The notes beneath the pieces are model-generated. The model had not been told where the DNA came from. It worked only from the letters and a program-made list of their open reading frames with translations, and did no database searches. From an uncultured bacterium (lineage in GTDB: Bacteria; Krumholzibacteriota; Krumholzibacteriia; LZORAL124-64-63), in NCBI GenBank assembly GCA_965369705.1, contig CBDURF010000002.1, forward strand, positions 1 to 49,154: 49,154 nt of DNA, read 5' to 3'. How positions within the stretch are numbered: the stretch's first letter is position 1; every line of letters starts with the position of its first letter. A program made the translations under genes and the position numbers. This document shows, piece after piece, positions 3,910-34,733 of the stretch.

Positions 3910-3941
3910 CCCAAACTGTTTCCGCTGGAAGCGGGTAGGGA

Positions 3942-3970
3942 ATAAAACACCGCAGGGAATCGATTGTCAA
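3942..3970 (-). promoter_or_regulatory. Candidate sigma70-type promoter for the tRNA-Phe/tRNA-Thr unit
   Basis: Minus strand reads TTGACA, a 17-nt spacer, then TTTTAT. It ends about 30 nt upstream of the tRNA-Phe 5' end. Confidence 0.4.
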
Positions 3971-4045
3971 GCTGGCGGCGGGATTTTTCAACCCGGCGGG
4001 ACAGACGACCGCCGGGCCCCGGCAAAGGGATCATCAACAGGCTGG

Positions 4046-4453
4046 TCAGCTGGCGGCCTTCTGGGTCAGTTCGGTGATCATACTGACAACTTGTTCAAGT
4101 TCAAAGGGCTTATAGAGGCAGGCATCAGCCCTGGACCAGGTGGCGATGAATTTTTCCCGGTCGTGGGAATCCACCTTCCTGGCGGTCAGGAGCATGATCG
4201 GGAAAGACTTGGCCTCAGGATCGTTCTCCATCCATTCCTTGAGCATGCGGCTGACTTCGTAACCGTTGCATCCGGGCAGCATGACATCCAGGATCATGAA
4301 ATCCGGGGGTAGGCGTTTGGCCTTGTCCAGCCCCTCCAGGCCGTCCAGAGCGGTGGCGACCTCGTACCCCTTCTTCGCCAGACTGTATTCGAGGGTTTCC
4401 AGGATGTCCGGTTCGTCATCCACCACGAGAATCCGTAACGCGCGATCCATCAT
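4046..4453 (-). CDS. Stand-alone response regulator receiver (CheY-like)
   Basis: ILVVDDEPDI, phospho-acceptor context ILDVMLPG, and LLTAR...KPF. No output domain is present. GGAGGA lies just upstream of tandem ATG codons, so the start could be 4453 or 4450. Confidence 0.9.
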   Translation of the reverse strand: MMDRALRILVVDDEPDILETLEYSLAKKGYEVATALDGLEGLDKAKRLPPDFMILDVMLPGCNGYEVSRMLKEWMENDPEAKSFPIMLLTARKVDSHDREKFIATWSRADACLYKPFELEQVVSMITELTQKAAS

Positions 4454-4495
4454 CAATCCTCCGTTGCATCGGTACTGGGCCGAAGAAATCGATCC

Positions 4496-5764
4496 TCACA
4501 ATTTATTCGGCCCGTCAGGGGCCGGGTTGACCATTGTTTCCTGTTGTTTCCCGGACGATCCGGCGACCGTCGCATCTTCCCCGGGTTCGGGAGCCAGGTA
4601 TTCCCAGCGGGTCGCCTCAAGCCCTCCGCCCATGCGGGCGACGTAGAGTGCCCAGCGACGGCTCCAATTGACCGGATCCAGAACGGCGGCCGCCCAGAGA
4701 CCGGGGGACGGCTCCCAACCCCGGGCGTAACCCGACGGCTCCCCGCCGAAGAACTCCACCACCTTCAAACCGGCCGGGGAGGTGCCACCGGCGCCCAGGC
4801 GCAGATCGAGCACCCCGACCAGAGGCTGAACACCGTGCCGCGAGCCTCTGGATAGGGCCTCCTTCAGCCGATCCACAGTGCGCTGGAAATGTTCCGCGGC
4901 GGGGTCCCGGGGTAACTTGAGCCAGACGGTGGTGCCCCGACCCGGCAGACTGACCAGCCGGATCTGACCGCCATGGGATTCCACAAGCCGGCGGGTAATG
5001 GAGAGTCCCAGGCCGGTCCCGGCGGCGTTGGCGCCCGCGGAGAATCGACCTCTGTTGAAAGGTTCGAAGATCCTGCCCTGGACGTCGGGGCTCAGGCCCG
5101 GGCCGTTGTCCTCCACGATCAGGTTGAAATGGGCCAGGGGCAGGCCGCAATGACGGGCCAACCTGCCCGCCAGACTCCGCGGGTATCCTGTACACGACTC
5201 CAGCCAAACCCGCACCAGTCCGCCGGGCTCGGTGTACTTCAGGGCGTTGCCCAGCACGTTGTCCAGCATGCGGATCACCAGATCGGGATCCACCCGGGCG
5301 GGAAAACTCTCAGGCAGTCCCGTATCATCGACTTCGAGGCCGCGGCTGGCCGCCGTCATCTTGTGCAGTCGGGCGGCCTCCTTCAGGATCGGGCCCAGAT
5401 CCACCTTGCGCCGCCTGATGGGGATGGAACCCGCCGGCAACCGGGCGGCCGTCAGCATGTCCTCCACCATCCGGTCCAAGCGATCGATGTTGCGTCGGGC
5501 CATGCCCAGGAAACGCCTCTGATCGGGCGTGAGGTCGCCCGCCTCCCCACTCAGCACCAGGTTCAGGCAGGATTGCAGCGAGGACAGTGGTGTGCGGAGG
5601 TCGTGGGTCAGGGATCGGACCGCTTCAGGCAGGCCGGAATCCCCGGGCCGGGAGGAGGGCTTCAGGGCTTCCGGAAGGGCTTCCGGAAGGGCTTTCGGGA
5701 GACCCGTTTCCAGGGACCCCGGATTGGGTGACTTCTGGTCATTGTTCCGAACAACGGCTGGCAA
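4496..5764 (-). CDS. Soluble histidine kinase (HisKA + HATPase_c) with an uncharacterised ~125-aa C-terminal extension
   Basis: H-box SLTHDLRTPLSSL, N-box GNALKYT, G-boxes DNGPGL and GTGLGLSI. No hydrophobic segment is present. The TTG start at 5764 lies 6 nt after GGAGGGG. No in-frame ATG occurs before the H-box. Confidence 0.88.
   Translation of the reverse strand: MPAVVRNNDQKSPNPGSLETGLPKALPEALPEALKPSSRPGDSGLPEAVRSLTHDLRTPLSSLQSCLNLVLSGEAGDLTPDQRRFLGMARRNIDRLDRMVEDMLTAARLPAGSIPIRRRKVDLGPILKEAARLHKMTAASRGLEVDDTGLPESFPARVDPDLVIRMLDNVLGNALKYTEPGGLVRVWLESCTGYPRSLAGRLARHCGLPLAHFNLIVEDNGPGLSPDVQGRIFEPFNRGRFSAGANAAGTGLGLSITRRLVESHGGQIRLVSLPGRGTTVWLKLPRDPAAEHFQRTVDRLKEALSRGSRHGVQPLVGVLDLRLGAGGTSPAGLKVVEFFGGEPSGYARGWEPSPGLWAAAVLDPVNWSRRWALYVARMGGGLEATRWEYLAPEPGEDATVAGSSGKQQETMVNPAPDGPNKL
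5657..5700. repeat. 12-nt tandem repeat (GGGCTTCCGGAA-like, about 3.5 copies) inside the kinase gene
   Basis: It encodes LPKA-LPEA-LPEA-L near the kinase N-terminus. Two units are identical and the flanking units are degenerate. Confidence 0.85.
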
Positions 5765-6058
5765 TTTTTTCCCCTCCGGGTGGCCCGGATCCGGTTGACA
5801 CTCCCCAAGTTATTGTATGGTTACGGGTTGAATAAAAACCCGAAAGCTGCTTCGCCACGCTTGATGGGGCAATTTGCAAGGGATATGCCAAGGCGATGAC
5901 TGCCGCTTCAGTCGGTCGGCGCGCCGCAGGCCCCCCGGGGAGCCTGCGGCCGGAACAACACCTTGAAATTCAACGGTTTAATTTATTTTAGTCCCAATTG
6001 GGAACCTCAAGTTTGCCGAGAGCACTGGCGATAGAATGGCGGCGGGGAAATATCATTC

Positions 6059-6077
6059 AAAAACCCGCCGGCGGGTT
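6059..6077 (-). terminator. Rho-independent terminator about 100 nt downstream of uvrA
   Basis: Perfect palindrome aacccgcc/ggcgggtt, followed on the minus strand by TTTTT. Confidence 0.7.
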
Positions 6078-6179
6078 GTTATTGTCCATTTCATTATTCT
6101 ACAATCGCTTGTGTCCCACAATGTTTCTCTGGAAAGCAAAAAGTCGGACACCATCCGAGGCGCAACCCAATGATTCGGG

Positions 6180-8978: not shown

Positions 8979-9121
8979 CCGGCTACGGGAAAACCATGCT
9001 CAACAGGGATTTTGCAGTCGGATAGAATAACAGAGGTTTGCCGCGGGGACAATGTGAATTAACCTGGGCAGGTTCCCGCACCCGGTTGACCCGGGTTTAA
9101 GCTTTTCCGGAAAGGATTCCA

Positions 9122-9913
9122 ATGCCCAGCAACTTCGAAGAGCTTCTCGCCACCATTCGCACCCTCCGCGCCCCCGGTGGATGTCCCTGGGACCGAAATC
9201 AGACCCTCCATGACGCCGCGCGGTATCTCATGGACGAGGCAGGGGAACTGGTCGACGCCACAATGGCCGAAGACACCGCCGGCGTCCGGGAAGAGTTGGC
9301 CGACCTGCTGTTCATGACCTGCTTCTGCACGGAGATTCTCGGCGAATCCGAACCGGTGACGATGAACGAAATCGCCAAGGAAGGAAACGCCAAGCTCATC
9401 CGCCGCCACCCCCATGTCTTCGGCGACGTCCAGGCCCGCACCACGGGAGAAAGCCAGGAGCGCTGGAACGCCATCAAGAGGGAAGAAAAGAGGGCCCGAG
9501 GTATCGACCCCGACCGGGAGTCGGCCCTCAAGGACATGCCCGCCTCCACGGCGCCCCTTCATCAGGCCTACACCTACCAGCACAACGCGGCGGACTGCGG
9601 ATTCGATTGGCCGGACATCGAGGGAGTCTGGGCCAAACTTCGCGAGGAACTGGGCGAATTCGAGGAGGCCGTCGCAGGGGGGAACACTCCAGCCATCCAG
9701 CATGAACTGGGCGATCTTCTCCTCGCGATCGTCAACCTGGCCCGCTGGCACAAGGTCCAGCCGGACATGGCGCTGCGGCAGGCCAACCAACGCTTCCGCG
9801 ACCGTTTCCACCTGGTCGAAGAGGATTTCAAAGCCCGGAATGTCGACATGAAGAAGGCGGGTATCGAGGCTCTCGAGGAGTCCTGGCAAAAGGCGAAGAG
9901 GCGGCTATCCTGA
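9122..9913 (+). CDS. mazG: Nucleoside triphosphate pyrophosphohydrolase MazG (tandem MazG domains)
   Basis: LRAPGGCPWDRNQT start, two EELADLL / ELGDLL-type helices, 263 aa. Confidence 0.93.
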   Translation: MPSNFEELLATIRTLRAPGGCPWDRNQTLHDAARYLMDEAGELVDATMAEDTAGVREELADLLFMTCFCTEILGESEPVTMNEIAKEGNAKLIRRHPHVFGDVQARTTGESQERWNAIKREEKRARGIDPDRESALKDMPASTAPLHQAYTYQHNAADCGFDWPDIEGVWAKLREELGEFEEAVAGGNTPAIQHELGDLLLAIVNLARWHKVQPDMALRQANQRFRDRFHLVEEDFKARNVDMKKAGIEALEESWQKAKRRLS

Positions 9914-22311: not shown

Positions 22312-22389
22312 TGGCGGGAGCGACGAGACTTGAACTCGCGACCTCCGGCTTGACAGGCCGGCGTTCTAACCAAACTGAACTACGCCCCC
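22312..22389 (-). tRNA. tRNA-Asp (anticodon GTC), CCA encoded
   Basis: Hand-folded cloverleaf: GGGGGCG TA GTTC AGTTTGGTTA GAAC G CCGGC CTGTCAA GCCGG AGGTC GCGAG TTCAAGT CTCGT CGCTCCC G CCA. Confidence 0.93.
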
Positions 22390-22441: not shown

Positions 22442-23887
22442 TTAATGTTCCGGCCCCGGTGGGCCGGCAATCAGGTCTTCCGGGGCGATATCGTACAGAG
22501 CCACAACCTTCCAGCCCATCCCCAGCAGGCCTTCCAGGTCGGTTTTGAGTGAGGGATGGCCCAGAACCAAACAGACGCCACGGGACGCCAGGCCGTCCAA
22601 AAGGTCCTGCATTTCCGGCAAGGGCCGGTGGGACGACACCAACAGACGATTCCCGGGCCGTAGCGACGGATTCGGGACGGGCGCCATATTTACCGAATGA
22701 AACATCCGGGAAAGGCGGACGTGGATCATTTCCAGCGGGCCGTCACCACGATTCCCGGCATCCTGGCCCGCGGCGGCTCCCCAACGATCCGAACGCGAAA
22801 AATCCAACCACAATAGATCGGCGTCCGGGTCCGGAAAAACCCTTCCGACAGGAGCCCATGACCGCTGCCTTGTTTCCGCATAGGGCCCCGCGGGGAACTC
22901 GCAACCAGCCTGCGTTTCGGCAGCCACTCCGGCTTCCGGACTGCCCGGCCCCCCTGTCAGGGGAAACGCAGCCCAGGGAATGCCCCTGATCAGCAGCCGG
23001 TCGCAACCGGCGGCGGCCAGATGTTCGAACCAGGCCAACGGAAGCGATCCGGGATCGAACAGACCCGTCTCCTGGTTATCGGGCACCGAAACACCAAGGC
23101 GCTGCATGGCCGGTCCCAGGGCGCCCATGGTGATGTCGTCGGCGAAGAAGAGCAGGTGTTCAACATGTCCGGGCCCGAGTTGCCGTTTTGAATTCGAAAT
23201 GAATTTCCGGTCAAGAGTGGCCGGAAGAACATCGGTTTCATTCTCGCGGTGATCAACGAGCAGATGCCCGACCATCACCGCGCCGGCGCCCGCGGTCAGC
23301 CCGCTTTCGAAAGGAGCAGGGAGTCCGCCCCGGTGAACCGCGGTTTCCCCGAGGTGGCTGTCGCCGCTGCTGCCCCCGTGGCCCGGCCAGTGTTTGAGGC
23401 AGACCTTTACGCCCGCTTCGAGCAGCCCGGTGACCGCGGCGACGGTATGCCGGGTCACCAGCGAGGGATCCGAGCCGAAGGAACGGGCGCCGATCACCGG
23501 GTTGCGTGGTTCCGTCAGGACATCGGCCACCGGCGCCAGGACACGATCGATCCCGACCCCGAGAAGACGGGCGCCGGTTTGTGCGAAGACCCGGGCCGTC
23601 AATCCCACGTCATCCAGGACCCCCAGGCTCCTCGCGCTGGGCGGTCTGCCCAGGGCCCCGGCCATTGGGGAAACCGGACCACCCTCGTGGTCGGTCATGA
23701 TTTCCAGACCGGGAACCAACTTACGGAGAATATCGCAAAGATCTTGCAACGTGTTGTAGTTTTTTACGTTACGAGAAAAAAGAATGACACCGGACGGTTG
23801 CCATTCGGCCAGCCAAGCGGACTCGAAGGCCGTTGGCCAGGACCCTTCCAGCCCCACCACGAGCCGCGCGGCGAGGTCCCCGCTCAC
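22442..23887 (-). CDS. nagZ: Glycoside hydrolase family 3 protein, beta-N-acetylhexosaminidase-like, with an extra C-terminal domain
   Basis: KHWPGHGGSSGDSH catalytic-region motif and a GH3 N-terminal domain. The proposed GTG start at 23887 overlaps the spoIID-like stop (GTGA). An ORF start as far upstream as 23986 is possible. Confidence 0.8.
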   Translation of the reverse strand: MSGDLAARLVVGLEGSWPTAFESAWLAEWQPSGVILFSRNVKNYNTLQDLCDILRKLVPGLEIMTDHEGGPVSPMAGALGRPPSARSLGVLDDVGLTARVFAQTGARLLGVGIDRVLAPVADVLTEPRNPVIGARSFGSDPSLVTRHTVAAVTGLLEAGVKVCLKHWPGHGGSSGDSHLGETAVHRGGLPAPFESGLTAGAGAVMVGHLLVDHRENETDVLPATLDRKFISNSKRQLGPGHVEHLLFFADDITMGALGPAMQRLGVSVPDNQETGLFDPGSLPLAWFEHLAAAGCDRLLIRGIPWAAFPLTGGPGSPEAGVAAETQAGCEFPAGPYAETRQRSWAPVGRVFPDPDADLLWLDFSRSDRWGAAAGQDAGNRGDGPLEMIHVRLSRMFHSVNMAPVPNPSLRPGNRLLVSSHRPLPEMQDLLDGLASRGVCLVLGHPSLKTDLEGLLGMGWKVVALYDIAPEDLIAGPPGPEH

Positions 23888-25299
23888 GGACCCACCTCGT
23901 CCAAGACGGCTCCGGGATAATAATGGGCCAGGATTTCCCGCACGTTCTTGCCCTGTTCCGCCATGACCAGGGCTCCGGTCTGGCACAACCCGATTCCGTG
24001 GCCGTATCCCCGGCCCCGGGTCGCCACCTCCACCAGACGGTCGCCGTCCCTGACCAGTTCCACTTCGAACATCGCGCTGCGCAGGATGAAAGGGTTTCCA
24101 TCCGCCGGCTTGAGAACCCAGCGCACCCGGTCCCCCCTCACGTGGTAGACACCCGCATCGGTGGTGACCGCGAGTCGAGCCACCCGACCGCTGGTTGTCC
24201 TGGCCAGGATTTCCAGATTTCTCAACCCGCCGGGCCTGTCGGCGGAAGCCGATCCGTCCCGGGGCGAAAACACCGGACCCGCCCAGTCGATCCTGCCCGG
24301 CTGGGTCATGTACTTCACGTATTCAGGAAGGCTCTTCCGCATGATCTCTTCCAGCCGTTGCGCTGTCCAGACTTCCCGCCAGTGGAAGTGACGGGAGGTG
24401 GAGCAGTAGGCCTCCTCATCCTTACCGGGACCGTCCGGCTTGCTGATCAGATAAGGCTTGGGCCCACGCGCCCAGACTTCTTCGATGTTGCTGGACACGC
24501 CTCCGCAGCAGGCGCTGTAGTAGGCGTCAATCTCCTGGTCTTCGAAACGCAATACCAGCCCAGCGGTATTTTCAACCGCGAAATTACAGAGGGGATCCTC
24601 GTCGGCGGCTCCCTTGTAGACCTGGTCCTGGACGCTGGCGTACACGTCGAAGCCGCGACTCTTCCGGGTGCCGAGGTGTGAAATGGTGTAGGTGCGGGCG
24701 GCCACGGCCTGGGCCTCCAGGGCGGCCAGCCGATTGCGATCATGGCGGCCGATTTCCCAGGGCACCACACCCCGAAGATAAGACTCCAGGTCCAGGTTGT
24801 TGACCAGAGTGAGTCCCCTGCCGCCGGGGGTCGGCCGCACCAGGAATTCCCCCCGGTACTCGGATTCACCGTGGATCACCCGGTGCCCGGGATCCAGGGG
24901 CTGGAGGATCACCGTTTCGGAGGTGCCCCGCAAACCACCCGCCCGCCAGGCGACCTGGCCACCGTCCCGCGTACAGACCACCTTGCCCGGCCCATCCAGA
25001 CGAGCCAGACGACGCCCGCTGGCGCCGTCCAGGATCAACGACGCGCCGTTGGCGGATAATTCCAGGGAGTTTTCCTTTTCGAGAAGACCGACCCCCAGCA
25101 GGGTTGGTGTCCCTGCCGCCGGCGCCAGGTCCGGCAAAGGTTCAGTTTCAACGGGCTGGGTGCGCTTGGGCCCGGCGCACCCGCCCAGCCCAAAGCCCGT
25201 CAGGGCCAGGCTGGTCAGGACCAGGCTCATCAAGGCAACACGCCACAGGACAAGGCCGTCCCGGGCGAATACATCATGCAGGGTCGAGATCCGTCTCAT
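23884..25299 (-). CDS. SpoIID/LytB-domain lipoprotein (peptidoglycan lytic transglycosylase / amidase enhancer family)
   Basis: AQAVAARTYTISH...FDVYASVQDQVYKG...AYYSACCGG motifs. Lipobox GLGGC-A. GGAAGGGG lies before the ATG at 25299. Confidence 0.9.
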   Translation of the reverse strand: MRRISTLHDVFARDGLVLWRVALMSLVLTSLALTGFGLGGCAGPKRTQPVETEPLPDLAPAAGTPTLLGVGLLEKENSLELSANGASLILDGASGRRLARLDGPGKVVCTRDGGQVAWRAGGLRGTSETVILQPLDPGHRVIHGESEYRGEFLVRPTPGGRGLTLVNNLDLESYLRGVVPWEIGRHDRNRLAALEAQAVAARTYTISHLGTRKSRGFDVYASVQDQVYKGAADEDPLCNFAVENTAGLVLRFEDQEIDAYYSACCGGVSSNIEEVWARGPKPYLISKPDGPGKDEEAYCSTSRHFHWREVWTAQRLEEIMRKSLPEYVKYMTQPGRIDWAGPVFSPRDGSASADRPGGLRNLEILARTTSGRVARLAVTTDAGVYHVRGDRVRWVLKPADGNPFILRSAMFEVELVRDGDRLVEVATRGRGYGHGIGLCQTGALVMAEQGKNVREILAHYYPGAVLDEVGP

Positions 25300-25348: not shown

Positions 25349-28300
25349 TCAACGCATCATCACCAGCCGCTGCATGTCACTGGCCACGACACCCTCGCTG
25401 GTGTCGATCTCCACCCGGTACAGATAGGTTCCGTTGCCCATCTCATCCCCGACATTGTCCCGCCCGTCCCATTCCACGATTCCCGACTCGCCGCCGATGA
25501 ACCGGAAGGGGATGCGGGCAACGGGACGGCCGGCGACCGAAAAGACCCGGATAGTGCCGGAACCGGAAGCCAGTCCGCGCGTCCCGAAAACGAACCGGGT
25601 GACCTCACGCATGGGGTTCGGAAAATTGTAGACCACGCCGAAGGCCTGATCGATGGCGTCCCCGGTGCCCTCTTGAAGCACCAGATCGGTCGGATAGCCG
25701 TCGATCGTCAGCACGACCATGTGCTCATCGTCCGCGTTCTGCGTCGGCGACGTGGCCGTGAAATTCACCGTCAGATGCTGATTCTTGTCCAGCAGGAACG
25801 CCACGTCCGTCAGGGTGAGCGTCTCACTGTCCAGGGCGAAGTCGGCGTCAGGGTCGTACCCCAGCAACCAGGCCGCGCTGGTGACCTGGGAATTGAAGCG
25901 GAGCGGCGTGTCGGCGGGAAACACGAAAGTCGCGGGGTCGATGGCGCTGCCGCCGATCGAAAACACCGCGGTCTGGGGCATCTTCAGAACGAGTTCGTAA
26001 TGCCGGTCGGTTTCCAGGGGTCCGCCGGTATCCCAGACCTTGACCGTCAGGTCGTGATCGAAGGGCCGCACCGGTACCTGCAGGCTGTAGTGCACCACTT
26101 GGTGCCCCGTCGCCCCGGGCGGCAGGGTTTCGGTGACGATATTCCCGGTCAGGTCCACTCCGTCGGAGCCCTTGACCTGGATGCGGTCGATACCGGCTTC
26201 ATCCTTGGCGGTCACGGTCACCGTGCGCACGTTGGTCTCATCGGTGGCGAAGATCTCGGCCTCGCCGGAAATCTCCTGGTCCGGCGAACCGACCAGGGTG
26301 GCGGTGACCTGCGCCTCGCCCGCGTCCAGCCCCATCAGGGGATCGCCCAGGATGACGTACTGGGAAACCATTTCCTGGGTGATGCTTCCCGGGGTCACCG
26401 CGTAGACATCGGCCTCGGCCGCCCACATCAACTCGCCCAGAGCCCAGCGACTGCGAAACTCGGCTCCGGCGCCCACGGAACGCTGGGCGGGGGGATTGAC
26501 CATCCAGCGCCGAAAGATGTACTCCCCGAACTTCCTGTTCTCGGCGATGTATTCATAACCCGAACTGCCATAGGTCGCCGAGGCGCCGGCCCGCGACCTT
26601 AAAAGAAATTTCTCGGAGATTGACCGTTCATGCGCCCTGGTGCTGGATTCCACCGTATTCTGGGCCCAGTCGGCGATATGACAACCCAACCCCATGAATA
26701 CCCAGGGTTTGTCGGTGTTGCCGATCTTGTCCACATCCCGGCGCCCCAAGCCGTCGTTCCTGTCCTTAAGCCAGTATTCCGAAGACAGGAGGTAGGTATT
26801 GGCGTGACCCTGGTAATGGGCCACCAAGCCTCCTTCGCTGAGTTTGGCCAGCAGGATCGGGGTGGCGGCGGCGGCCGTGTAGCTCTGGACATCCCTCATG
26901 TTGCGTGCCTCGGGCGTCGGAGGCGGCGGATCATAGGGGAAGGCCGGATCCAAGGTGTCTTCCAACAGCACCAGAACACTGTCCAGGACTACCGGCGAAC
27001 CGCTGCGCCACAGCCGGGAAAGGGAATCCCGCTCGCTCATGGCGAAAACGTATTCGTTAAACTGGTAGACAAGGGTACTGAGGGCTTGGTCCCCGTACCC
27101 GTTTGACCACCGGTCGTCGGCGAAGAAGATGCCCTTGCGGCGCCAGGCCTGGTCGGCCGCCACGTTTTCCACGGTCATGACCTTGTCGATCATGATGTCG
27201 AGCTCGGCCACCGAGTTGCAGGGAAACCGGCCGGAGTACATGGCCCAGGGACCATACACATCGGCAGGGAAATTATCCTCGGGGTAGTTCATGCCCGATT
27301 CAAGGGTAACATACCATTTGTCCGAGGCCATCAGCTCAGGCGCGTAACTGAGCGCCGTCTGCACATGGTAATGGGTCGGCACCCAGTCCTTGGACCAGGC
27401 GCGGGCCGAAGGAAGCACCCCCTTTTCCAGGACGTTTTCGTTCGCGTCCCCCACCATGGTCAGGGCCCAGCTGTTCCAGCGGGTGATGGCATGGGTCACG
27501 AAGCGTTTGAGGGCCCAGGGATCCTTCAACCCACCACTGTACCAGTCGAACAGGTCCTCCACATCCACCACGTGGACAATGAGGTTCCCGCCTGCCCGGC
27601 TTATGCGGTGCTCGATCCACCGGTCCAGGGCGGCCCGGAAGGTGGGATGGGTGATCACGATCAGATCGGGAGCCGGACCCGCCAGGTCGGTGGGATTGGT
27701 CGGGTCCGCGGCCACGGACGACAGGTGAGACGGGAATTCGTCCACGCCGTCGGTGGAAAAATTCCCCACGGCGGCGAAGGAGCGTGTCGGCCCGGATTGG
27801 TCCGGCATCACCGACAGGGTCCAGGTCAAGCCATCGGACGTCGTGATATTGCCCCCGCCGAGTTCCACCACCACCGGCTGCCGCGGATCGGTCACCTCGA
27901 TAAGACCGATGTTCGCGGAATTGAAACCGGTCACTTCCACCGGCTGCGGCCCGAGGCCGGCGCCGCAGTTGAAGGAGATCCTATTGTTGGTCGCCTGATA
28001 CAGGGCGTCGTAGGAGATCTTGATCCAATTCAGGAAGCTCAACACAATGGTTCCACGCGGGTTGTACATGCGGATTTCGGCATGATCGCCCAAGATGGCC
28101 GCCGGAGGCACGGAATAGTGAAGGGTGTCCTCATAGATGCTCGCCTGGACATGATCTCCCAGGTGCGTGGTCAAACTCGAGTCGGTGATCAGGTCGAAGC
28201 GCAGGGCCCTGCCCGAGTTGTTCAGGCCCACGACACCGATCTTGATTTCCACGTCGGATCCGGTCGGATCCGGGGCCCACAGTGTATTGATGCCCGCACG

Positions 28301-29791
28301 GACATCCAACGCGCGCACGGTGTTGAGGTAGAGGCGATCGACCCACACTTTGGGCAGATTCTCCCGGAAAGCCGGCTGTTCCTCGATGCGTTCGCTATGG
28401 CGATAACCGGACAGAGGGGTGCCCGTGGCCGCGGGCAGGGTGGTTTTCGCCATCCGGGACCAGGGCTGGCCCGCTTCGGCCTCGCTAGCGGCCAGCCAAT
28501 AGACGTTGGCTGCGTTTTTCATCTCCCAGGCGTCGCCGCAGCCGGGTATGGTTTCCGGCCCGTTCCCGAGGTCCGCGACATGGGACCCGTCGTCCCGCAG
28601 ACGCAAGCCGTAGAAGACGAAGAAATCGTCCCCATCGAAATTGTCCCCTTCCCCGACCATGTGGATGGGCACCTCGACCACCACGTACGGAGCCTGCCCC
28701 GATCCGTCGTCGAGAGCCGGGTTGTAACGGCGTTGATAGAGCCGGATCTGATCCTCGCGGATCACACCCTCGGGCAGAAGCCCTCGTGAATTCAGTCGGT
28801 CATAGGTCACGCGCACGAGTCCTGTCTTCCAGACCGCAAGCCGGGTTTCGGGTCCCAGCAGGGTTCCGGTCTTCCCGCCCCGCACCTTGTCCAGGCTGGA
28901 TTCATCGGCATCCTGGAAAGATGAGAAATCAACCCCCTGCCATGCCGCTTCGGTGGGCAATCGAGTCAACAGCTCATCATTCAGGAAGATGCCGCCGAAC
29001 CTGTCGTCGTTGCTGGTCGAGGACTTGCGGGCGTGGGCAGCCGTGATTGACCGGCCGGCGGAGGCGTCGGGCACGAAACGGATTTCCCAGGTACCGCCCG
29101 CGAGCACTTGTCCCGCCACGCCGGCCCCGTCGTGGCGAATGGGAACCACCTGATAGGATACGATGCGCCGCCCACGCCACCAGACCACCTTACCAAGGGT
29201 CACCGCGGTGGAGGCGGAGGCCCTCCCACGGCGGGCCAGGGCCTCGAGAGCCGTGGCCGGGATGACAGCGTCGGTGGGAGGTTCCTCGCCGGGAAGCACC
29301 AAAATTTCGGAGGCGGAATTGTCCCAGGATTCAGCGCCCTGGATGATGACCGGCACGCTTGACAACATCAGGGGACGGTCGCCCGCGGGCATCCACCGCT
29401 CTTCGATGGTCCTCAGTTCCGGGCGCGTTCCCGGAGGCACGACGACCCATCCACCATTACGCGGCAGACTGGGATGGCCCGGCTCACCGGAAGACACGAA
29501 CCCCGCCATGCTCACCTCATAAAGCGTAACAGGCGGGTCCCCGACGGTGCGGGGCGTCCAGACGGGATCGAGTCCCTTGACCGAGAAACGCAGCGCGTCC
29601 GGTCCGCTCGATATGTCGGAGATCCACGCCGCACCGTTTTCTGCTGCATCGGCGGCTGCAGCAACGGCAGGGGCCAGAGGAAAACCCAGAACGAGAAGTC
29701 CCAGAAGGATCCCCCGGCAAATTTGCGGGGTCAAACTCCGGGGATGGGAATTGCGGGTCAAATGGGTTAGACGATACACAGAACCATCCAT
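25349..29791 (-). CDS. Very large secreted peptidase C25 (gingipain-like cysteine protease) with a FlgD-Ig / T9SS type-A-like C-terminal domain
   Basis: C25 core runs from DLIVITHPTFRAALDRWIEHR to TMVGDANE. Candidate catalytic His is in YQGHANTY (codon 26804-26806). Candidate catalytic Cys is in MGLGCHIADW (codon 26681-26683). The last ~95 aa (25352-25636) read VYNFPNPM...IRVFSVAGRPVARI...VEWDGRDNVGDEMGNGTYLYRVEI. The signal-like segment is ILLGLLVLGFPLAPAVAAAADA. AGGAGA lies 5 nt before the ATG at 29791. Alternative starts are 29863 and 29890. Confidence 0.85.
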   Translation of the reverse strand: MDGSVYRLTHLTRNSHPRSLTPQICRGILLGLLVLGFPLAPAVAAAADAAENGAAWISDISSGPDALRFSVKGLDPVWTPRTVGDPPVTLYEVSMAGFVSSGEPGHPSLPRNGGWVVVPPGTRPELRTIEERWMPAGDRPLMLSSVPVIIQGAESWDNSASEILVLPGEEPPTDAVIPATALEALARRGRASASTAVTLGKVVWWRGRRIVSYQVVPIRHDGAGVAGQVLAGGTWEIRFVPDASAGRSITAAHARKSSTSNDDRFGGIFLNDELLTRLPTEAAWQGVDFSSFQDADESSLDKVRGGKTGTLLGPETRLAVWKTGLVRVTYDRLNSRGLLPEGVIREDQIRLYQRRYNPALDDGSGQAPYVVVEVPIHMVGEGDNFDGDDFFVFYGLRLRDDGSHVADLGNGPETIPGCGDAWEMKNAANVYWLAASEAEAGQPWSRMAKTTLPAATGTPLSGYRHSERIEEQPAFRENLPKVWVDRLYLNTVRALDVRAGINTLWAPDPTGSDVEIKIGVVGLNNSGRALRFDLITDSSLTTHLGDHVQASIYEDTLHYSVPPAAILGDHAEIRMYNPRGTIVLSFLNWIKISYDALYQATNNRISFNCGAGLGPQPVEVTGFNSANIGLIEVTDPRQPVVVELGGGNITTSDGLTWTLSVMPDQSGPTRSFAAVGNFSTDGVDEFPSHLSSVAADPTNPTDLAGPAPDLIVITHPTFRAALDRWIEHRISRAGGNLIVHVVDVEDLFDWYSGGLKDPWALKRFVTHAITRWNSWALTMVGDANENVLEKGVLPSARAWSKDWVPTHYHVQTALSYAPELMASDKWYVTLESGMNYPEDNFPADVYGPWAMYSGRFPCNSVAELDIMIDKVMTVENVAADQAWRRKGIFFADDRWSNGYGDQALSTLVYQFNEYVFAMSERDSLSRLWRSGSPVVLDSVLVLLEDTLDPAFPYDPPPPTPEARNMRDVQSYTAAAATPILLAKLSEGGLVAHYQGHANTYLLSSEYWLKDRNDGLGRRDVDKIGNTDKPWVFMGLGCHIADWAQNTVESSTRAHERSISEKFLLRSRAGASATYGSSGYEYIAENRKFGEYIFRRWMVNPPAQRSVGAGAEFRSRWALGELMWAAEADVYAVTPGSITQEMVSQYVILGDPLMGLDAGEAQVTATLVGSPDQEISGEAEIFATDETNVRTVTVTAKDEAGIDRIQVKGSDGVDLTGNIVTETLPPGATGHQVVHYSLQVPVRPFDHDLTVKVWDTGGPLETDRHYELVLKMPQTAVFSIGGSAIDPATFVFPADTPLRFNSQVTSAAWLLGYDPDADFALDSETLTLTDVAFLLDKNQHLTVNFTATSPTQNADDEHMVVLTIDGYPTDLVLQEGTGDAIDQAFGVVYNFPNPMREVTRFVFGTRGLASGSGTIRVFSVAGRPVARIPFRFIGGESGIVEWDGRDNVGDEMGNGTYLYRVEIDTSEGVVASDMQRLVMMR

Positions 29792-29921: not shown

Positions 29922-29962
29922 GGAAAAACAAACGAAAGGGGCGGGTCAACCCGCCCCTTTCG
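29922..29962 (-). terminator. Strong Rho-independent terminator after secreted-protein gene A
   Basis: Minus strand reads cgaaaggggcggg-ttga-cccgcccctttcg followed by tttgttttt. Confidence 0.85.
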
Positions 29963-30010
29963 ACAATCACGGAACCGGAATCAATCCGGATATCCTTTCA
30001 AGCAAGCTCC

Positions 30011-30634
30011 CTACCGATACAGAGCCTTGACCGATCCGAAGGACGCGTCCTCGATAGCGACGACTTCGCCGTTGAAGGCCCATACGACGGAGTCAGTGGA
30101 CCCACCGGACGGGAACATTTGGATCAGCGGGGGATCGACGGGCAAAAACACCATCTGATCCGGGGCACTGGGAAGGGAAATAGGGCTCAGGGTGACTTCG
30201 ATCAGGCCCACGGTGGTGGTCATGAATTGGAACGAGATCAGCACGACCGACTCGTCTACCACCGCCCACGGGCTGGCAATCCCCACGGCGTATTCCAGGT
30301 AACCATCGCCGATATGGCTGTTGTCACCGATATTGAGGCTATTGGGGGGAAGCGCGTCAAGCAGCTTGAACATGTTGCCCGCGGGGTTGAAGTTCAGCTG
30401 GACTTCGAAAGCGGTGATGGCGGTATAGGGTACGTCGAATTCGTCCGCGGGTCTGGTCAAAACCAGGAACACGTCCACGGCCGAGCCGACGTCCATGGTA
30501 TAGGTATTGCCTGTGCCGTCGGCGAACTGGTAGAGACCCACCTGGTTGGTGTACATGTGTTGGGCAAACCCCGTGCTGGGAGCCAGCAGAGCAAGCGCGG
30601 CCAGTGCCGACACAGCAAAAAACAACTTCTTCAT
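30011..30634 (-). CDS. Secreted 207-aa protein A, paralog of B (unknown family, weak cohesin-like signature, conserved C-terminal tail)
   Basis: Signal peptide MKKLFFAVSALAALALLAPSTGFA-Q. It aligns along its length with protein B and ends ...VVAIEDASFGSVKALYR followed by stop. GGGGA lies before the ATG. Confidence 0.8.
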   Translation of the reverse strand: MKKLFFAVSALAALALLAPSTGFAQHMYTNQVGLYQFADGTGNTYTMDVGSAVDVFLVLTRPADEFDVPYTAITAFEVQLNFNPAGNMFKLLDALPPNSLNIGDNSHIGDGYLEYAVGIASPWAVVDESVVLISFQFMTTTVGLIEVTLSPISLPSAPDQMVFLPVDPPLIQMFPSGGSTDSVVWAFNGEVVAIEDASFGSVKALYR

Positions 30635-31015
30635 TTTCGATTCCCCTTTCTTGGAAAATCCGTTTTTCAGCCCTGGAACAATTGGCGATCCTGCGAAATC
30701 CGAAACCGGCCAGAGCGACGATCCATCATGCCGGGTCCCGACTTGGGCCAGAAACAGGAAACGCTTTCAGCGACAACAGCTAAAAGATACCGAGTCTCAT
30801 CCAGCCCGACAAGTACTCTTTTCGGTCCGAGGCGAATTTTATTGACCGAATAAAATGACCCGGTGTTCCCTCCCTCCGCACGAGCAAAAACAGGTGTTTG
30901 CCAGGTCCAGGAAGGGACAAGATTGAATATCCGGGCAATTTCCAGGTCTGTCAAGGGTTAACAGAAGGCGGGGAATTGGGCTGTTCTCGGTGTCCAGATT
31001 GCCGGGAACAGACGC

Positions 31016-31049
31016 AAAAAGGATCCGGGTGGAATTTCCACCCGGATCC
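31016..31049 (-). terminator. Strong Rho-independent terminator after secreted-protein gene B
   Basis: Near-perfect 29-nt palindrome: 14-bp arms ggatccgggtggaa / ttccacccggatcc around a single unpaired central base. It is followed on the minus strand by TTTTT. Confidence 0.88.
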
Positions 31050-31091
31050 TTGGACCTACGTCCAGCAGCCGAAGCTGCAACTCACACCGTT

Positions 31092-31715
31092 TTACCGGAA
31101 CAAGCTCTTCACGCTGCCAAAGCTGGCATTCTCGACACCAACAACACAGTTTTCGAAGTTGACGGTGGCGACGGGAGTGTCCGGCCCGCCGGTCGACTGA
31201 CCGGCCTGGTACAGAACTTTGGTAACGTCGTTCAAGAGTACCGGGTAGTCCCCGGGGATCGAGGGATCCACCGGGATACTGCTGAGATAAAATTCCATCG
31301 TTACCAACGGGCTCAACAGCATGAACTGCCACGAGTGCAGAACCGTCGCGGGATCACCCGGGAGGCCTTCAGCCAAGCCGACGATGTAGGTACCTTCCAG
31401 AACGTCAGTCTCGTTACCAAGGTTGAGACCGGTGGTGACCCCATTGGCGATGGTGGAGGCTAACCGGAAAAGAAAACCTTCCATTCCGGTAGGAACCACG
31501 ATGCGATAGCCCAATTCGTAGGCGCTGATCGCGGGAGCGGTCGGATTGGTGGTGACGATGTAGGCCATGAACGGCAAGCTGGCTCCAATAATCAGGCAAT
31601 TGTCATCGGCGTTCATGTCGAAGTAGATCCCAATCATGTCATCATCGGGATCAACGACAGCGAAAGCAGAAGTTGCCATCAGACTGACCAGCAAAAGAAC
31701 TACCAACTTCTTCAT
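31092..31715 (-). CDS. Secreted 207-aa protein B, paralog of A
   Basis: Signal peptide MKKLVVLLLVSLMATSAFA-V. AGGAGA lies 6 nt before the ATG at 31715. The 17-codon upstream ORF extension was rejected. It ends ...VVGVENASFGSVKSLFR followed by stop. Confidence 0.8.
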   Translation of the reverse strand: MKKLVVLLLVSLMATSAFAVVDPDDDMIGIYFDMNADDNCLIIGASLPFMAYIVTTNPTAPAISAYELGYRIVVPTGMEGFLFRLASTIANGVTTGLNLGNETDVLEGTYIVGLAEGLPGDPATVLHSWQFMLLSPLVTMEFYLSSIPVDPSIPGDYPVLLNDVTKVLYQAGQSTGGPDTPVATVNFENCVVGVENASFGSVKSLFR

Positions 31716-31875
31716 GTTGTGTCTCCTAATTGTGAGCAGGTACTTTCCGTGAAATCGCCGTATCAATCGGGCGAGACGTTGGTGGCCCTGCCACCTGCAT
31801 TAGCAGAGCCACCCTTGGTCTTGCATCCCGGAATTCCTCCGTCACACCCGGCCAGGCCGGGCGCGGCTGGGAATC

Positions 31876-32550
31876 CTAGGGGCAATGGTTTCCGTAGAAC
31901 TTCGCCATTTCAGGCAGATCGATAATGTTCACGTCAATGTCGAAGTACAGATCCGACCGGAAATGGTACACCGGATCGAAGAAGTCAGCCGTAAACGCCT
32001 GGAGATCAACCAGGTTGACGACACCGTTGCCATCAAGGTCCGGGCTGTTCCAGCTAACATCAATAGTGTTGGACAAGGCGTTGCCGTTGATCACAACATA
32101 AGTTTGAAGGAAGCTTTGTCCACCCGCCGAAAGCGCGTCCTGGAACTCAGTCATTCCATCAATATCCGTGCTGAAATCAGCGGTGCAACCGCCCGTGCAG
32201 CAAATCAAACCGACATTTTCGGTGAGGGGGTCAGAGGGACACTCAAGCCACATATCCTCGGCGGGATAGTTGACGATGGTATCACCCGCGCCATCCCTGA
32301 CTTCCAAATGGATGGTGGCATCGCCGAGTACCTGAGCGGCCGGGTACGGGGCGATAACCTTGACGGCTACATCCAACGAATGCTCTGCGGAACCACCAGG
32401 CACGACAAGTACAACCATCTTACCGGGAAAAAGTGTATCCTCCCGAGCGGCAGTACAGTATGTCACATCCGGAACACCCGCCATAGCGAGCGAAGCGGCA
32501 CCAACAATCAGGGTAATTAAAAAAATACCCATAATTTTCCTAAGAACCAT
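31876..32550 (-). CDS. Secreted 224-aa protein C with a C-terminal dockerin-like duplicated EF-hand segment
   Basis: Signal peptide ...LITLIVGAASLAMA-G. The Cys-containing N-terminal region is probably a beta-sandwich. The last ~56 aa (31879-32046) read SPDLDGNGVVNLVDLQAFTADFF...DLYFDIDVNIIDLPEMAKFY. GGAGGTG lies before the ATG at 32550. Confidence 0.8.
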   Translation of the reverse strand: MVLRKIMGIFLITLIVGAASLAMAGVPDVTYCTAAREDTLFPGKMVVLVVPGGSAEHSLDVAVKVIAPYPAAQVLGDATIHLEVRDGAGDTIVNYPAEDMWLECPSDPLTENVGLICCTGGCTADFSTDIDGMTEFQDALSAGGQSFLQTYVVINGNALSNTIDVSWNSPDLDGNGVVNLVDLQAFTADFFDPVYHFRSDLYFDIDVNIIDLPEMAKFYGNHCP

Positions 32551-32755
32551 TAGGACACCTCCAAAAAAGGCACATTCTAGCGAGGGTGGCTAACCCAAGC
32601 GGACACATTGACTACTGCGTTGAGCTCTCCTTCCCACTCACATGTCCATCACTTGACATCATTAGATTACCATACGCATCGGGCCAATGCAACCAATATT
32701 ATTTATCTTCTGCGGAAAATTAGAGAAAAAATCGAAATCTTCAATTTCGATGAGT

Positions 32756-32803
32756 AAAAAAAGACCCTCGACTCCATTTTTGGGGAGAATCGAGGGTTTT
32801 TTT
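32756..32803 (-). terminator. Rho-independent (bidirectional-looking) terminator downstream of tRNA-Val
   Basis: accctcga(ctcc)...(ggag)aatcgagggt hairpin, flanked by A7 on one side and T7 on the other. Confidence 0.8.
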
Positions 32804-32826
32804 AGAAAATGTGAAATTTTTTTATA

Positions 32827-32903
32827 TGGTGGGCGAAGCAGGACTCGAACCTGCGACTTCCTGCGTGTAAAGCAGGCGCTCTAGCCAACTGAACTATTCG
32901 CCC
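32827..32903 (-). tRNA. tRNA-Val (anticodon TAC), CCA encoded
   Basis: Hand-folded cloverleaf: GGGCGAA TA GTTC AGTTGGCTA GAGC G CCTGC TTTACAC GCAGG AAGTC GCAGG TTCGAGT CCTGC TTCGCCC A CCA. Confidence 0.93.
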
Positions 32904-33070
32904 ACGCTATCCTGGAACGAACGCCACAAAAAGAAGGGCAACAAGACGCAGTAGCCGAGTACCAGCAGAACCGGTCCGAGGGTGAGCATACCGGCGGCCA
33001 GGGTGGCGAAACCCAGGACGATCGCCCCCAGCGAGACCCACAACAACCAGAACTTTTTCACCAAACCCAT
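32894..33070 (-). CDS. Possible 58-aa two-TM membrane protein whose stop codon lies inside tRNA-Val
   Basis: MGLVKKFWLLWVSLGAIVLGFATLAAGMLTLGPVLLVLGYCVLLPFFLWR contains two hydrophobic helices. GGAGGG lies about 8 nt before the ATG at 33070. The last codons, GGC GAA TAG, are tRNA nucleotides. Confidence 0.45.
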   Translation of the reverse strand: MGLVKKFWLLWVSLGAIVLGFATLAAGMLTLGPVLLVLGYCVLLPFFLWRSFQDSVGE

Positions 33071-33165
33071 TGCCTTGCCCTCCGGCAGCGCGGAAACAAA
33101 AAAATCATCGGGACTCGCCGAGCCCCTTGGAATCGGCTGAACAATAAAAGGAGGAAGCGGTTCCG

Positions 33166-34299
33166 TCAATCATTCCGGTGGCCGCGATTTCCGGCCCTGG
33201 CGCGTCGAAATTCCTGCACGGCCGCCTCGTGCTCACGGGCGGTCCTTGAGAAAACGTGTCCACCCTGGCCGTCGGAAACGAAATACATGGCCCGGCAAGC
33301 GGGATCCGGATGGGCGGCAGCCTCAATGGCCGCCAAGCCGGGATTGCCGATGGGCCCCGGCGGCAGTCCCCTGTTACGGTACGTGTTGAACGGGGAGGCG
33401 ACCTCCAGATCCCGGTAGAAAAGGCGTTTGCCCTTTTTTCGCAGGGTGAAGGCAACCGTGGGGTCCGCTTCCAGTCGCCAACCCTTCCGCAGGCGATTGA
33501 CGTAGACCGCGGCAATGAGAGGACGCTCATCGTCGCGCCGGGCCTCGGCCTCCACGATGGAGGCGAGGGTCAGCAGATCTTGAGGAGTGAGGTCGAGATC
33601 CGTCACCGGCACGGAACCGGCCATCACCGAATCCAGGCGAGCCCATTGGGTCGCAACCAGGAAATCCGCCACCTTGGCCGCGCTGGTGCCCTCGGTGAAT
33701 TGAAAGGTGTCCGGCGAAAGATGTCCCTCGCACCACCGGAACCGCCGCGGGTGGCGAGCGGACTCGGCCGCCAGCAGGGAATCGTGAGCAGCTGCCGCGG
33801 TCTCGCCTCCCTTCAGCAGGCGTCCCTTTCGTGCGGCCGTCATCACCAGGGAATCGGCCGCAGCCAGGAAATCGGCCGGTGAAAACCCCAGCGCTTCGGA
33901 TACAAGATCGGCGATCTCCTCGGCGTCCAGGCCCTCGGGAATGGTCACCTTCACCTGCACGGCGACCCCCATGGTCAGAACCTGCAGCAGGTCCCGGGGT
34001 GAAGCGCCGACCGGCAATTCATAGAGACCGGCCCGCAACGCCCGCCCCTTGCCCGTCAACCTGGCTCCCGTCAGAAGAACCGTGGGATGTTTCAGCAGGC
34101 CTCGCGCCGCCAGGGAATCGGCGGCGGCGGTCAGGGTCATGCCGGGGGGAATCCTCATCAGGATCGTCGCGGGTGCGGGTACGGACTCCCGGTCCGACAC
34201 TGTACGCGGACCCGGCCCCGTCCACAGGCGCCAGCCCCACAGGACAATCACCAGACCCAGCAGGAAGGCGACCCCCGCCACGGCGGCCCAGCGTTTCAT
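33166..34299 (-). CDS. mltG: Endolytic murein transglycosylase MltG (YceG-like)
   Basis: N-terminal TM helix, IVEAEARRDDERPLIAAVYVNRL, YNTYRNRGLPPGPIGNPG. The start ATG shares 1 nt with the ruvX stop (TGATG). Confidence 0.93.
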   Translation of the reverse strand: MKRWAAVAGVAFLLGLVIVLWGWRLWTGPGPRTVSDRESVPAPATILMRIPPGMTLTAAADSLAARGLLKHPTVLLTGARLTGKGRALRAGLYELPVGASPRDLLQVLTMGVAVQVKVTIPEGLDAEEIADLVSEALGFSPADFLAAADSLVMTAARKGRLLKGGETAAAAHDSLLAAESARHPRRFRWCEGHLSPDTFQFTEGTSAAKVADFLVATQWARLDSVMAGSVPVTDLDLTPQDLLTLASIVEAEARRDDERPLIAAVYVNRLRKGWRLEADPTVAFTLRKKGKRLFYRDLEVASPFNTYRNRGLPPGPIGNPGLAAIEAAAHPDPACRAMYFVSDGQGGHVFSRTAREHEAAVQEFRRARAGNRGHRND

Positions 34300-34733
34300 C
34301 ACGGCTGCTCCCGGTGAGGCCCGGCCCCCGCGCTCAGGCTGTCCAGGTAGGATTGGAGAATGATCTGGGCGGCCAGGGCATCCCGGTCTTCCTTACCGGA
34401 TCGGCGGCCTTTATCGAGCCAGCGATCCGCCTCGGCGCTGGAGTATCTCTCGTCCCAGAGAATCACCTCCACTTCGAATTCCCTGGCCAGACGCAGGGCG
34501 AATTTGCGGACTCGGCCGGCCATGTCACCCTCGCGCCCGTCGGCGGTCAGGGGCAGCCCCAGCACCAATCCGGTGACGGCCCTGGCCTCGATCAATTTCC
34601 CGAGGTGGGTCAGGATCGAGCTGTCGCGACCCTCCACATGGGTACCCAAGGCAAAGGCCAAGGACGTTGCGGGATCGCTGGCGGCGATGCCGATTCGGCG
34701 CAGGCCGTAATCGAGGCCCAGATAGCAGGACAT
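34299..34733 (-). CDS. ruvX: YqgF/RuvX putative pre-16S rRNA nuclease / Holliday junction resolvase-like protein
   Basis: YLGLDYGLRRIGIAASD N-terminus, 144 aa, DERYSSAEA motif. Confidence 0.9.
   Translation of the reverse strand: MSCYLGLDYGLRRIGIAASDPATSLAFALGTHVEGRDSSILTHLGKLIEARAVTGLVLGLPLTADGREGDMAGRVRKFALRLAREFEVEVILWDERYSSAEADRWLDKGRRSGKEDRDALAAQIILQSYLDSLSAGAGPHREQP

Follow-up and report, generated by a model that had tools for sequence, protein, structure and literature searches.

Lineage-specific C-terminal sorting tags on bacterial proteins are known in general. The recognition of LPXTG, of PEP-CTERM and of the C-terminal domain (CTD) of type IX secretion system (T9SS) substrates led, in each case, to a dedicated processing machine and to the prediction of surface proteomes, and the choice-of-anchor domain class owes its name to its co-occurrence with alternative C-terminal anchors. 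In Ruminococcus flavefaciens, the scaffoldin ScaE combines a single cohesin with an LPXTG sortase signal. Braun's lipoprotein (Lpp) of Escherichia coli ends in Y-R-K-COOH and is linked via its terminal Lys, with the Tyr and Arg aiding recognition. The shortest T9SS CTDs described comprise 40–55 aa in three strands, and the last 22 residues of Hbp35 of Porphyromonas gingivalis were found to be absolutely required to secrete green fluorescent protein (PMC11969387). Here, we analyse a stretch of 49,154 nucleotides (hereafter, the window) from an uncultured bacterium of the phylum Krumholzibacteriota (assembly GCA_965369705.1, contig CBDURF010000002.1, positions 1 to 49,154), in which two neighbouring genes, A and B, encode secreted paralogs that end in the same short tail. 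This tail, or tag, matches no described class. From its sequence and distribution, we consider it probable that it serves Krumholzibacteriota as a sorting or anchoring tag, modular and confined to the C-terminus, on small Sec-exported envelope or surface proteins.

Both genes lie on the minus strand, which the first-pass annotation had omitted; its description of two 207-aa secreted paralogs was otherwise borne out. For B, the mechanical open reading frame (ORF) reaches back to a TTG at 31766, and the ATG preceded by AGGAG gives the length of 207 aa. The two proteins share 36% identity over 149 aa (BLASTP, E=7e-10). Among the blocks that had been listed as common to both, hGhY, I[TS]A[FY]E[VL] and S[FW]QFM are indeed shared, and GG.D[ST] fits B only (GGPDT), A reading GGSTDS. 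In an unselected alignment of 22 ortholog sequences, the invariant columns are M1, A24, G33, G103, V117, K203, L205 and R207; three of these eight fall within the last five residues, and A24 is the residue after which the signal peptide of A is presumably cleaved. Among orthologs of just 40–60% overall identity, the A-type signal peptide (MKKLLFAVSALAALSLLAPSTGFAQ) is itself nearly invariant, an unusual feature in a signal peptide, so that conservation is far higher at both ends of these proteins than in between.

The tails of A and B read E[DN]ASFGSVK[AS]L[YF]R-stop, with 10 identical residues, and the six-frame translation of the window contains the motif only twice, each time immediately 5' of a stop codon. 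Seven of the 10 identical residues use different codons in the two genes (GCG/GCC, TCC/AGC, TTC/TTT, GGA/GGC, TCG/AGC, GTC/GTG and CTG/TTG), exactly as had been noted at first pass, and the tail nucleotides are identical at 24 of 42 positions. These codon differences refute the idea that the shared tail is a relic of duplication at the DNA level and, together with the spread in GC content of the loci that carry the tail elsewhere, they uphold the earlier claim that it is kept at the protein level.

A profile search with 42-aa C-terminal segments in a database of 5.8 billion proteins yielded 16 candidates via the word index and no match, and carriers of the tail were found instead by DNA-pattern scans. 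The strict pattern [ST][FW]G[SGN]VK[AS]L[YF]R was found 568 times in a 596-Gb collection holding one genome per species, against about 8 occurrences expected by chance. Since diverged members can fail tblastn confirmation against A, the comparison of these 568 matches with the 69 confirmed relatives was not used to count non-family carriers. All 92 copies of the strict pattern in the fetched genome loci stand directly before a stop codon. Across the 1273 ORFs of 192 loci, we counted 235 terminal copies of the tail against five 'internal' ones, all of which lie 1–4 residues from the end or belong to a tandem-duplicated tail. Within the cohesin-like family to which A and B belong, 229 of 270 fetched members have the motif at their exact C-terminus, the other 41 being near-misses, fragments or, in four cases, proteins that end differently through fusion to a CTD. 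The outcomes that would have spoken against the first-pass annotation did not occur: the motif is present elsewhere, keeps off internal positions and does not form the final strand of a characterized family.

Aligned from the C-terminus, the tag spans 13–17 residues with the consensus V-x-x-E-x-x-[ST]-[WF]-G-x-[VLI]-K-x-L-[YF]-R-COOH, and its position profile is V at −16, E at −13, [ST] at −10, [FW] at −9, G at −8, [VLI] at −6, K at −5, [AS] at −4, L at −3, [YF] at −2 and R at −1. Arg is the last residue in 99% of tails and Lys occupies position −5 in 100%, the latter figure coming from a set chosen by a pattern that requires Lys. G−8, K−5, L−3 and R−1 are 94–100% conserved over unrelated carriers and a broad GC range. 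Residue −9 is F in 76% of all tails (mostly from the A/B family) and W in every non-family carrier from the genome loci; the two residues may define two tag sub-classes. The loci of the carriers range from 36 to 75% GC, which suggests wide divergence, and the taxon names recovered, for few clusters only, are all 'Candidatus Krumholzibacteria' or plain 'bacterium'. Three IMG/VR contigs classed as viral (L193, L194 and L195) encode in-frame tagged proteins and, as one of them (L193) has just 36% GC, the range of the tag extends well past high-GC genomes such as that of the window.

The tag is not tied to one protein family or fold. The 69 fetched genome loci contain 123 tail-ending ORFs, often in tandem, 100 of which are ordinary family members; about a dozen fail the hidden Markov model (HMM) of the cohesin-like core, a small multihaem cytochrome being one of the non-family carriers. 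A search of metagenomes for tails of the W type (E-x-x-[ST]-W-G-x-V-K-x-L-[YF]-R-stop) returned at least 120 stretches, and 132 of the 140 tail-ending ORFs listed from it are non-family by the core HMM. With starts and signal peptides called heuristically, 105 of these 140 are complete with an N-terminal signal peptide, and most of the others are truncated by contig ends. Pooling of the tail ORFs gave 245 sequences in 65 BLAST clusters, 48 of them singletons; the resulting figure of about 60 families is a BLAST-level count that depends on the sensitivity of BLAST and of the HMM, and some of the small families that score weakly with the core HMM may be distant relatives of the cohesin-like proteins. 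Recognizable carriers include a right-handed beta-helix (Beta_helix), a C-type lectin (Lectin_C), a lamin-tail domain (LTD) and a choice-of-anchor V protein (NF041895, 4.9e-22), and 8 of the 105 complete carriers are lipoproteins by their lipobox. Those with names are annotated as 'hypothetical protein' or 'lectin-like protein' of Candidatus Krumholzibacteria. In the sampled fragments, each Krumholzibacteriota genome assembly holds at least 8–10 tagged genes.

Within the cohesin-like family, the tail is also separable from the core. A 20-aa insertion lies between the last strand of the core and the tail in homologue P0125. In P0156, P0201 and P0220, the core is intact and a FlgD_ig/T9SS CTD stands in place of the tail, as it does in P0236, which is apparently frameshifted; P0220 comes from a contig named Krumholzibacteria and has a neighbour with a weak Por_Secre_tail match. 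Given the insertion, the CTD-replaced relatives and the occurrence of the tail on unrelated proteins, we regard the tail as a separate module. Tagged proteins are much smaller than T9SS-CTD proteins (median about 220 vs 730 aa), and 37 loci encode both tagged and ordinary T9SS-CTD proteins, so the tag marks a distinct class of small cargo and is no replacement for the CTD.

In one lipoprotein family (…NFRxAYExxD…), a domain is duplicated in tandem and both copies end in a tail-like motif; the internal copy is without the final Arg (FGMTKFLYL in L152, TWGYVKALF in L190). Its members lie at 64–1713 of L152, 1820–3115 of L190 and 1614–2375 of L127, and one member has two complete tails in tandem.

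Homologues of A number 133, of about 206–215 aa, and come from Krumholzibacteria metagenome-assembled genomes (MAGs) and from metagenomes; the few named ones are all from Candidatus Krumholzibacteria/-ota MAGs. An exhaustive phmmer search with B gave 426 clusters (50% identity) at E≤1e-3 and, among the 150 clusters listed, nearly all are of 190–215 aa and aligned end to end. Neither A nor B has any match at E≤1 in Pfam or NCBIfam, and the relatives of A likewise carry no annotation from either collection. The AlphaFold2 (AF2) model of A, built on a 150-sequence alignment, is a beta-sandwich with a pLDDT of 96–99 over residues 30–190 and a final strand at residues 183–187; residues 191–207, which contain the tag, lie beyond the fold with a pLDDT of about 58–64. 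In a Foldseek search of the core against the PDB, 24 of the top 25 hits are cohesin modules. Type II cohesins lead the list (1qzn, 5k39_A and 4fl4_B; E about 3e-5, lowest 2.7e-5), with target-length-normalized TM-scores of 0.56–0.65, the range over single-module cohesin chains being 0.54–0.65, and the anchoring-scaffoldin cohesin of ScaE (2zf9) is also among the hits. Because of this predicted beta-sandwich and its cohesin matches, A is, as modelled, a single cohesin-like module with a flexible C-terminal extension, and B likewise by homology. The two are the most conserved cargo of the tag, consisting of cohesin-like module, flexible linker and tag. Such genes also occur in arrays. A Krumholzibacteria MAG has a tandem array of about eight cohesin-like tagged genes (L039, 6996–12671), each ending in LSFCETVPD...FG[AG]VKALYR, and in both L042 and L032 three cohesin-like tagged genes stand in a row.

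The cohesin-like fold had been missed at first pass, as had two neighbours of A and B: a dockerin protein and a PorU-like peptidase (Table 1). The first is a 224-aa secreted protein modelled with a pLDDT of 94, in which Foldseek finds a dockerin (2y3n_B; target-normalized TM-score 0.74, rmsd 1.6 Å, 53 columns); three of its homologues carry PF00404 (Dockerin_1). It has neither the tag nor a CTD and shows a conserved ...C-P end. The gene is syntenic with B and A in 16 loci, and a homologue also lies 3' of the cohesin-like/CTD fusion gene P0201 in L070. A cohesin-like/dockerin gene pair is thereby found in a diderm candidate phylum.

The second neighbour belongs to peptidase family C25 (PF01364). 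We placed its start at the ATG at 29791, the mechanical ORF extending to 29890. It matches the NCBIfam model T9SS_sortase (NF033707) with E=6e-42 and 143 bits, below the equivalog cut-off of 420 bits, and its sequence makes it clearly a PorU homologue, though not a certified equivalog. Its sole relative in the PDB is PorU of P. gingivalis (6za2_A), to whose CTD residues 1384–1478 align; the FlgD_ig model gives 15.7 bits, below its cut-off of 27. The motifs YQGHAN and G[LM]GCHIADW, kept in the orthologs, are candidate catalytic His/Cys motifs. In the genome scan, the C25 gene is syntenic with A in 17 loci at 40–79% identity, and Krumholzibacteria MAGs retain the gene order dockerin protein, B, A, C25 as the identity of the C25 protein drops from 79 to 40%. 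In L164, a C25 gene of 26% identity has two tail-bearing genes 3–5 kb upstream. That region (899–9723) consists of the two tagged genes, a gene for a 479-aa TPR protein, one on the opposite strand for an FG-GAP protein and then the C25 peptidase, which has Propeptide_C25 and FlgD_ig (6.8e-9) domains and is followed by AnmK and SpoIID genes. Hairpins follow both A and B, the 87-nt region of the latter having a z-score of −6.8, and A and B are predicted to be separate, terminator-bounded transcription units.

Table 1. Features of the A/B locus and its two conserved neighbours (positions in the window)
Feature	Position	Strand	Details
Gene A	30011..30634 (incl. stop)	−	207-aa secreted cohesin-like protein ending in the tag; ORF list
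A signal peptide, residues 1-24	30563..30634	−	MKKLFFAVSALAALALLAPSTGFA, then Q; type I, predicted, read from sequence
A cohesin-like beta-sandwich core, residues 28-190	30065..30553	−	AF2 pLDDT 96-99, Foldseek
A tag region, residues 191-207	30014..30064	−	Beyond the predicted fold, pLDDT 58-64
A tag motif, 13 residues	30014-30052	−	EDASFGSVKALYR, then stop; sequence
Tag-region peptide			...PVAVENESFGSVKALYR
Gene B	31092..31715	−	207-aa paralog of A; ATG after AGGAG taken as start
B signal peptide, residues 1-19	31659..31715	−	MKKLVVLLLVSLMATSAFA, then V; type I, predicted, read from sequence
B tag motif	31095..31133	−	ENASFGSVKSLFR, then stop; sequence
Dockerin protein gene	31876..32550	−	Upstream of B; 224-aa secreted protein, N-terminal Ig/filamin-like domain, no tag
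Dockerin module, about residues 170-224	31879-32043	−	AF2, Foldseek
PorU-like C25 cysteine peptidase gene	25349..29791	−	Downstream of A; about 1480 aa; Peptidase_C25 2.3e-48
Terminator-like hairpin 3' of A	29933..29962	−	13-bp stem, 10 GC pairs, then TTTGTTTTTC; sequence
Promoter-like site of the C25 gene	29890-29862	−	Sequence
Terminator-like hairpin 3' of B	31010..31049	−	14-bp stem GGAUCCGGGUGGAA/UUCCACCCGGAUCC, then UUUUU; sequence

The window is otherwise ordinary chromosome, encoding GlmS, UvrA, CorC-type transporters, QueC, an M49 peptidase, a GH3 enzyme, SpoIID, YceG, RluD, LspA, IleRS, DivIVA and EF-G. Genes for cell-wall enzymes flank the module, with GH3 and SpoIID on one side (22442–25299) and YceG/MltG on the other (33166–34302); they may reflect inherited gene order or hint at a link to peptidoglycan. 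The GC content is 0.555–0.571 over 30001–34000, which covers A, B, the dockerin gene and a tRNA, vs 0.61–0.65 elsewhere. A tRNA-Val gene (32827–32903) borders the module, with YceG on one side of it and the dockerin gene on the other. A tRNA-Asp gene (22312–22389) falls inside the 5' stretch by which the M49 peptidase ORF is mechanically extended, and the true start of the peptidase gene must hence be further downstream.

Considering that the tail is exposed, strictly terminal, under strong selection at the protein level, carried by unrelated Sec-exported proteins and swapped with a surface-sorting CTD, it is best read as a sorting or anchoring tag that likely directs localization or attachment. 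The first-pass annotation had likened its logic to that of a signal for sorting, anchoring or recognition; its terminal position outside the fold, its presence on about 60 groups unrelated by BLAST and its interchange with the CTD support such a putative function. Tagged proteins would pass the inner membrane via Sec, after which a dedicated envelope component would bind the exposed tag, including the carboxylate of the terminal Arg and the invariant Lys, and would send the proteins to the cell surface or fix them there. The cohesin-like core and the adjacent dockerin protein suggest a surface docking pair, in which the modules of A and B, once on the cell surface, could bind their dockerin-bearing neighbour. 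Such an arrangement would parallel, in a Gram-negative setting, the single-cohesin anchoring scaffoldins exemplified by ScaE of R. flavefaciens. The best candidate for a component that reads or processes the tag would be the adjacent PorU-like, sortase-type peptidase, which is the sole recurrent neighbour. That PorU-like or T9SS machinery does read the tag is possible, and we regard it as doubtful. No other recurrent neighbour that could act as a reader emerged from clustering of the locus ORFs, which returned only the dockerin/C25 module and housekeeping synteny; this negative is weak because crude ORF calling in high-GC DNA gave antisense shadow ORFs.

Several observations weigh against this interpretation. 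The tag has 13–17 aa, is strandless and is modelled with a pLDDT of about 60, whereas a T9SS CTD has at least 40 aa and at least three strands; it lacks the T9SS motif B and the GxY motif D, and it coexists with ordinary CTD cargo in the 37 loci that encode both. For these reasons, the tag and the CTD are not simply equivalent. Given the length of the shortest CTDs and the requirement for the last 22 residues of Hbp35, a minimal PorU/T9SS-related signal is conceivable but unprecedented. A strong terminator and a promoter-like site part A and B from the C25 gene, with no co-transcription, and the whole region from IleS to M49 is syntenic, so A/B and C25 could be adjacent through inheritance of an ancestral gene order. 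The majority of tail-bearing genes occupy other sites in the genome, without a C25 gene close by. The lipoproteins among the carriers (8 of 105) and the small multihaem cytochrome could equally be periplasmic. Lastly, neither A nor B matches the Pfam Cohesin model (PF00963) at E≤1.

Other explanations also have to be considered. The tail could be a non-covalent docking peptide whose free carboxylate binds one shared receptor, for instance a TPR protein or a surface scaffold, so that many small proteins are gathered at one site without proteolytic processing. A strict requirement for the extreme C-terminus, near-invariant G, K, L and R in a flexible, low-confidence segment, the TPR gene situated between tagged and C25 genes in L164 and the use of cohesin–dockerin-type docking next door would all suit such a peptide. 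We nevertheless consider it unlikely, given that the clustered locus ORFs revealed no recurrent neighbour family beyond the C25 module and no receptor, and that the commonest carriers are cohesin-like proteins, which a scaffold-and-ligand arrangement does not predict. Slightly less likely still is a peptidoglycan tether resembling Lpp, in which an L,D-transpeptidase or similar enzyme would recognize the C-terminus and link it covalently or tightly to the wall, the carriers being periplasmic and the lipoproteins among them acting as tethers between outer membrane and wall. The invariant Lys at −5, the aromatic residue at −2, the Arg at −1 and the required terminal position recall Lpp, and the lipobox carriers, the multihaem cytochrome and the cell-wall genes that flank the module (YceG/MltG, SpoIID and GH3 in the window, AnmK and SpoIID in L164) are in keeping with such a role. 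The final residue, however, is nearly always Arg and not Lys, the YkuD motif [ST]xGC[IVL][RN] is absent from the window and the 192 loci (whole genomes were not searched), many carrier domains are typically extracellular (choice-of-anchor V, lectin, LTD, beta-helix, and cohesin with a dockerin partner), and it is a surface-sorting CTD that takes the place of the tail in relatives.

The strength of residue conservation bears on a further proposal, namely that the tail forms a short amphipathic anchor of the type seen in the C-terminal helices of PBP5 and MinD, with its aromatic and basic residues holding the proteins on a membrane surface. AF2 does place two short helical turns at residues 199–205 of A and, as read from the sequence, K and R would point away from a helical face made up of F/W, V, L and Y/F; yet this helix has about seven residues at low confidence, generic membrane helices tolerate substitution, unlike the four near-invariant positions of the tail, and the exact C-terminus would not be needed, all of which makes such an anchor improbable. 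It is very improbable that the tail is an ordinary end of a structural domain, a last strand or capping element conserved through folding constraints and with no sorting role. Whereas the tandem-domain lipoproteins, with a tail-like motif per copy, lend it some support, the modularity data contradict it: the tail lies beyond the confident fold, set apart by an insertion or by a linker that varies, is missing where an intact core is fused to a CTD, and occurs on beta-helix, C-type lectin, LTD, cytochrome and cohesin-like folds. A relic at the DNA level, whether left by a recent duplication, by gene conversion among paralogs or by a repetitive element, would suit the tandem position of the paralogs A and B and the existence of arrays such as that in L039. 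Its chance is practically nil, since the codon data already refute it and the same peptide is encoded across the full GC range given above. Among all these explanations, we favour the sorting or anchoring tag.

The first-pass annotation had stated that the tail fits no named C-terminal tag, and this stands: the tail has neither a membrane segment nor a folded domain, and no Pfam or NCBIfam model matches it. In particular, the CTD models PF18962, PF13860, TIGR04183 and TIGR04131 gave no match to A or B at E≤1, and ten other carriers compared with NCBIfam gave no match of a CTD or sorting-signal model to the tail at E≤10. Among searchable papers, we found none that contains the tail strings or links Krumholzibacteria to T9SS or cohesin. 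There is a substantial chance that the tag marks a new sorting route. An undescribed, phylum-wide route, either a third and minimal class of T9SS/PorU-dependent signal of about 15 residues or a wholly separate machinery that reads the free ...K-x-L-[YF]-R-COOH, and including a Gram-negative cohesin–dockerin surface system, is a serious possibility, if one that falls short of probable. The tag is shorter than LPXTG, PEP-CTERM and the T9SS CTD, and current annotation is blind to it, every carrier being a 'hypothetical protein'; with a simple pattern or HMM, hundreds of proteins of this uncultured phylum would be recognized as cargo of the envelope or surface. The tag would also point to the machinery that reads it, with the PorU-like peptidase as first candidate, and A and B together with the dockerin protein would offer a testable case of cohesin–dockerin assembly in a diderm. 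If a peptide of 15 residues does suffice for sorting, it would make a compact display tag, and by a new route, dozens of small-protein families would be brought to the cell envelope.

Compared with known systems, the tag shares individual traits with several and agrees in full with none. Like Braun's lipoprotein (…YRK-COOH), it has an aromatic-basic C-terminus with an essential Lys, and some of its carriers are lipoproteins; its Lys lies at −5 and is not terminal, however, and most carriers look extracellular. The beta-signal of outer membrane proteins (OMPs) is likewise a conserved C-terminal stretch of about 10 residues with aromatics, but it ends a beta-barrel with an aromatic residue, whereas the tag ends in Arg on carriers with soluble-type folds; with Arg last and a beta-sandwich as the fold of A, an OMP beta-signal is ruled out. 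With PEP-CTERM/exosortase, GlyGly-CTERM/rhombosortase and MYXO-CTERM, the tag has in common a short terminal motif on many unrelated secreted proteins of one lineage, carriers with 'choice-of-anchor' domains included. Those signals continue after the motif with a transmembrane (TM) helix and a basic cluster, whereas the tag ends at the motif without either. A tripartite sorting signal of the LPXTG, PEP-CTERM or GlyGly-CTERM kind was thus rejected, there being no hydrophobic stretch and no match to an NCBIfam sorting-signal model. The likeness to the T9SS CTD and PorU extends to a C-terminal signal on Sec-exported proteins of a bacterium of the FCB group, a basic residue at the end (R−1 of the tag, as in CTD motif E), the position of genes A and B beside a PorU homologue and a cohesin-like type of core that carries either the tail or a CTD. 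ScaE differs in being anchored to a Gram-positive wall through a tripartite LPXTG signal (motif, TM helix and basic tail), whereas the host of A and B is a diderm, their tag is without a hydrophobic segment and the candidate enzyme is a C25 peptidase and not a sortase of classes A–F. A and B nonetheless resemble ScaE in architecture and setting: one cohesin-type module is followed by a C-terminal, putatively sorting tag, and the genes for a partner with a dockerin and for an enzyme of the sortase type lie close by.

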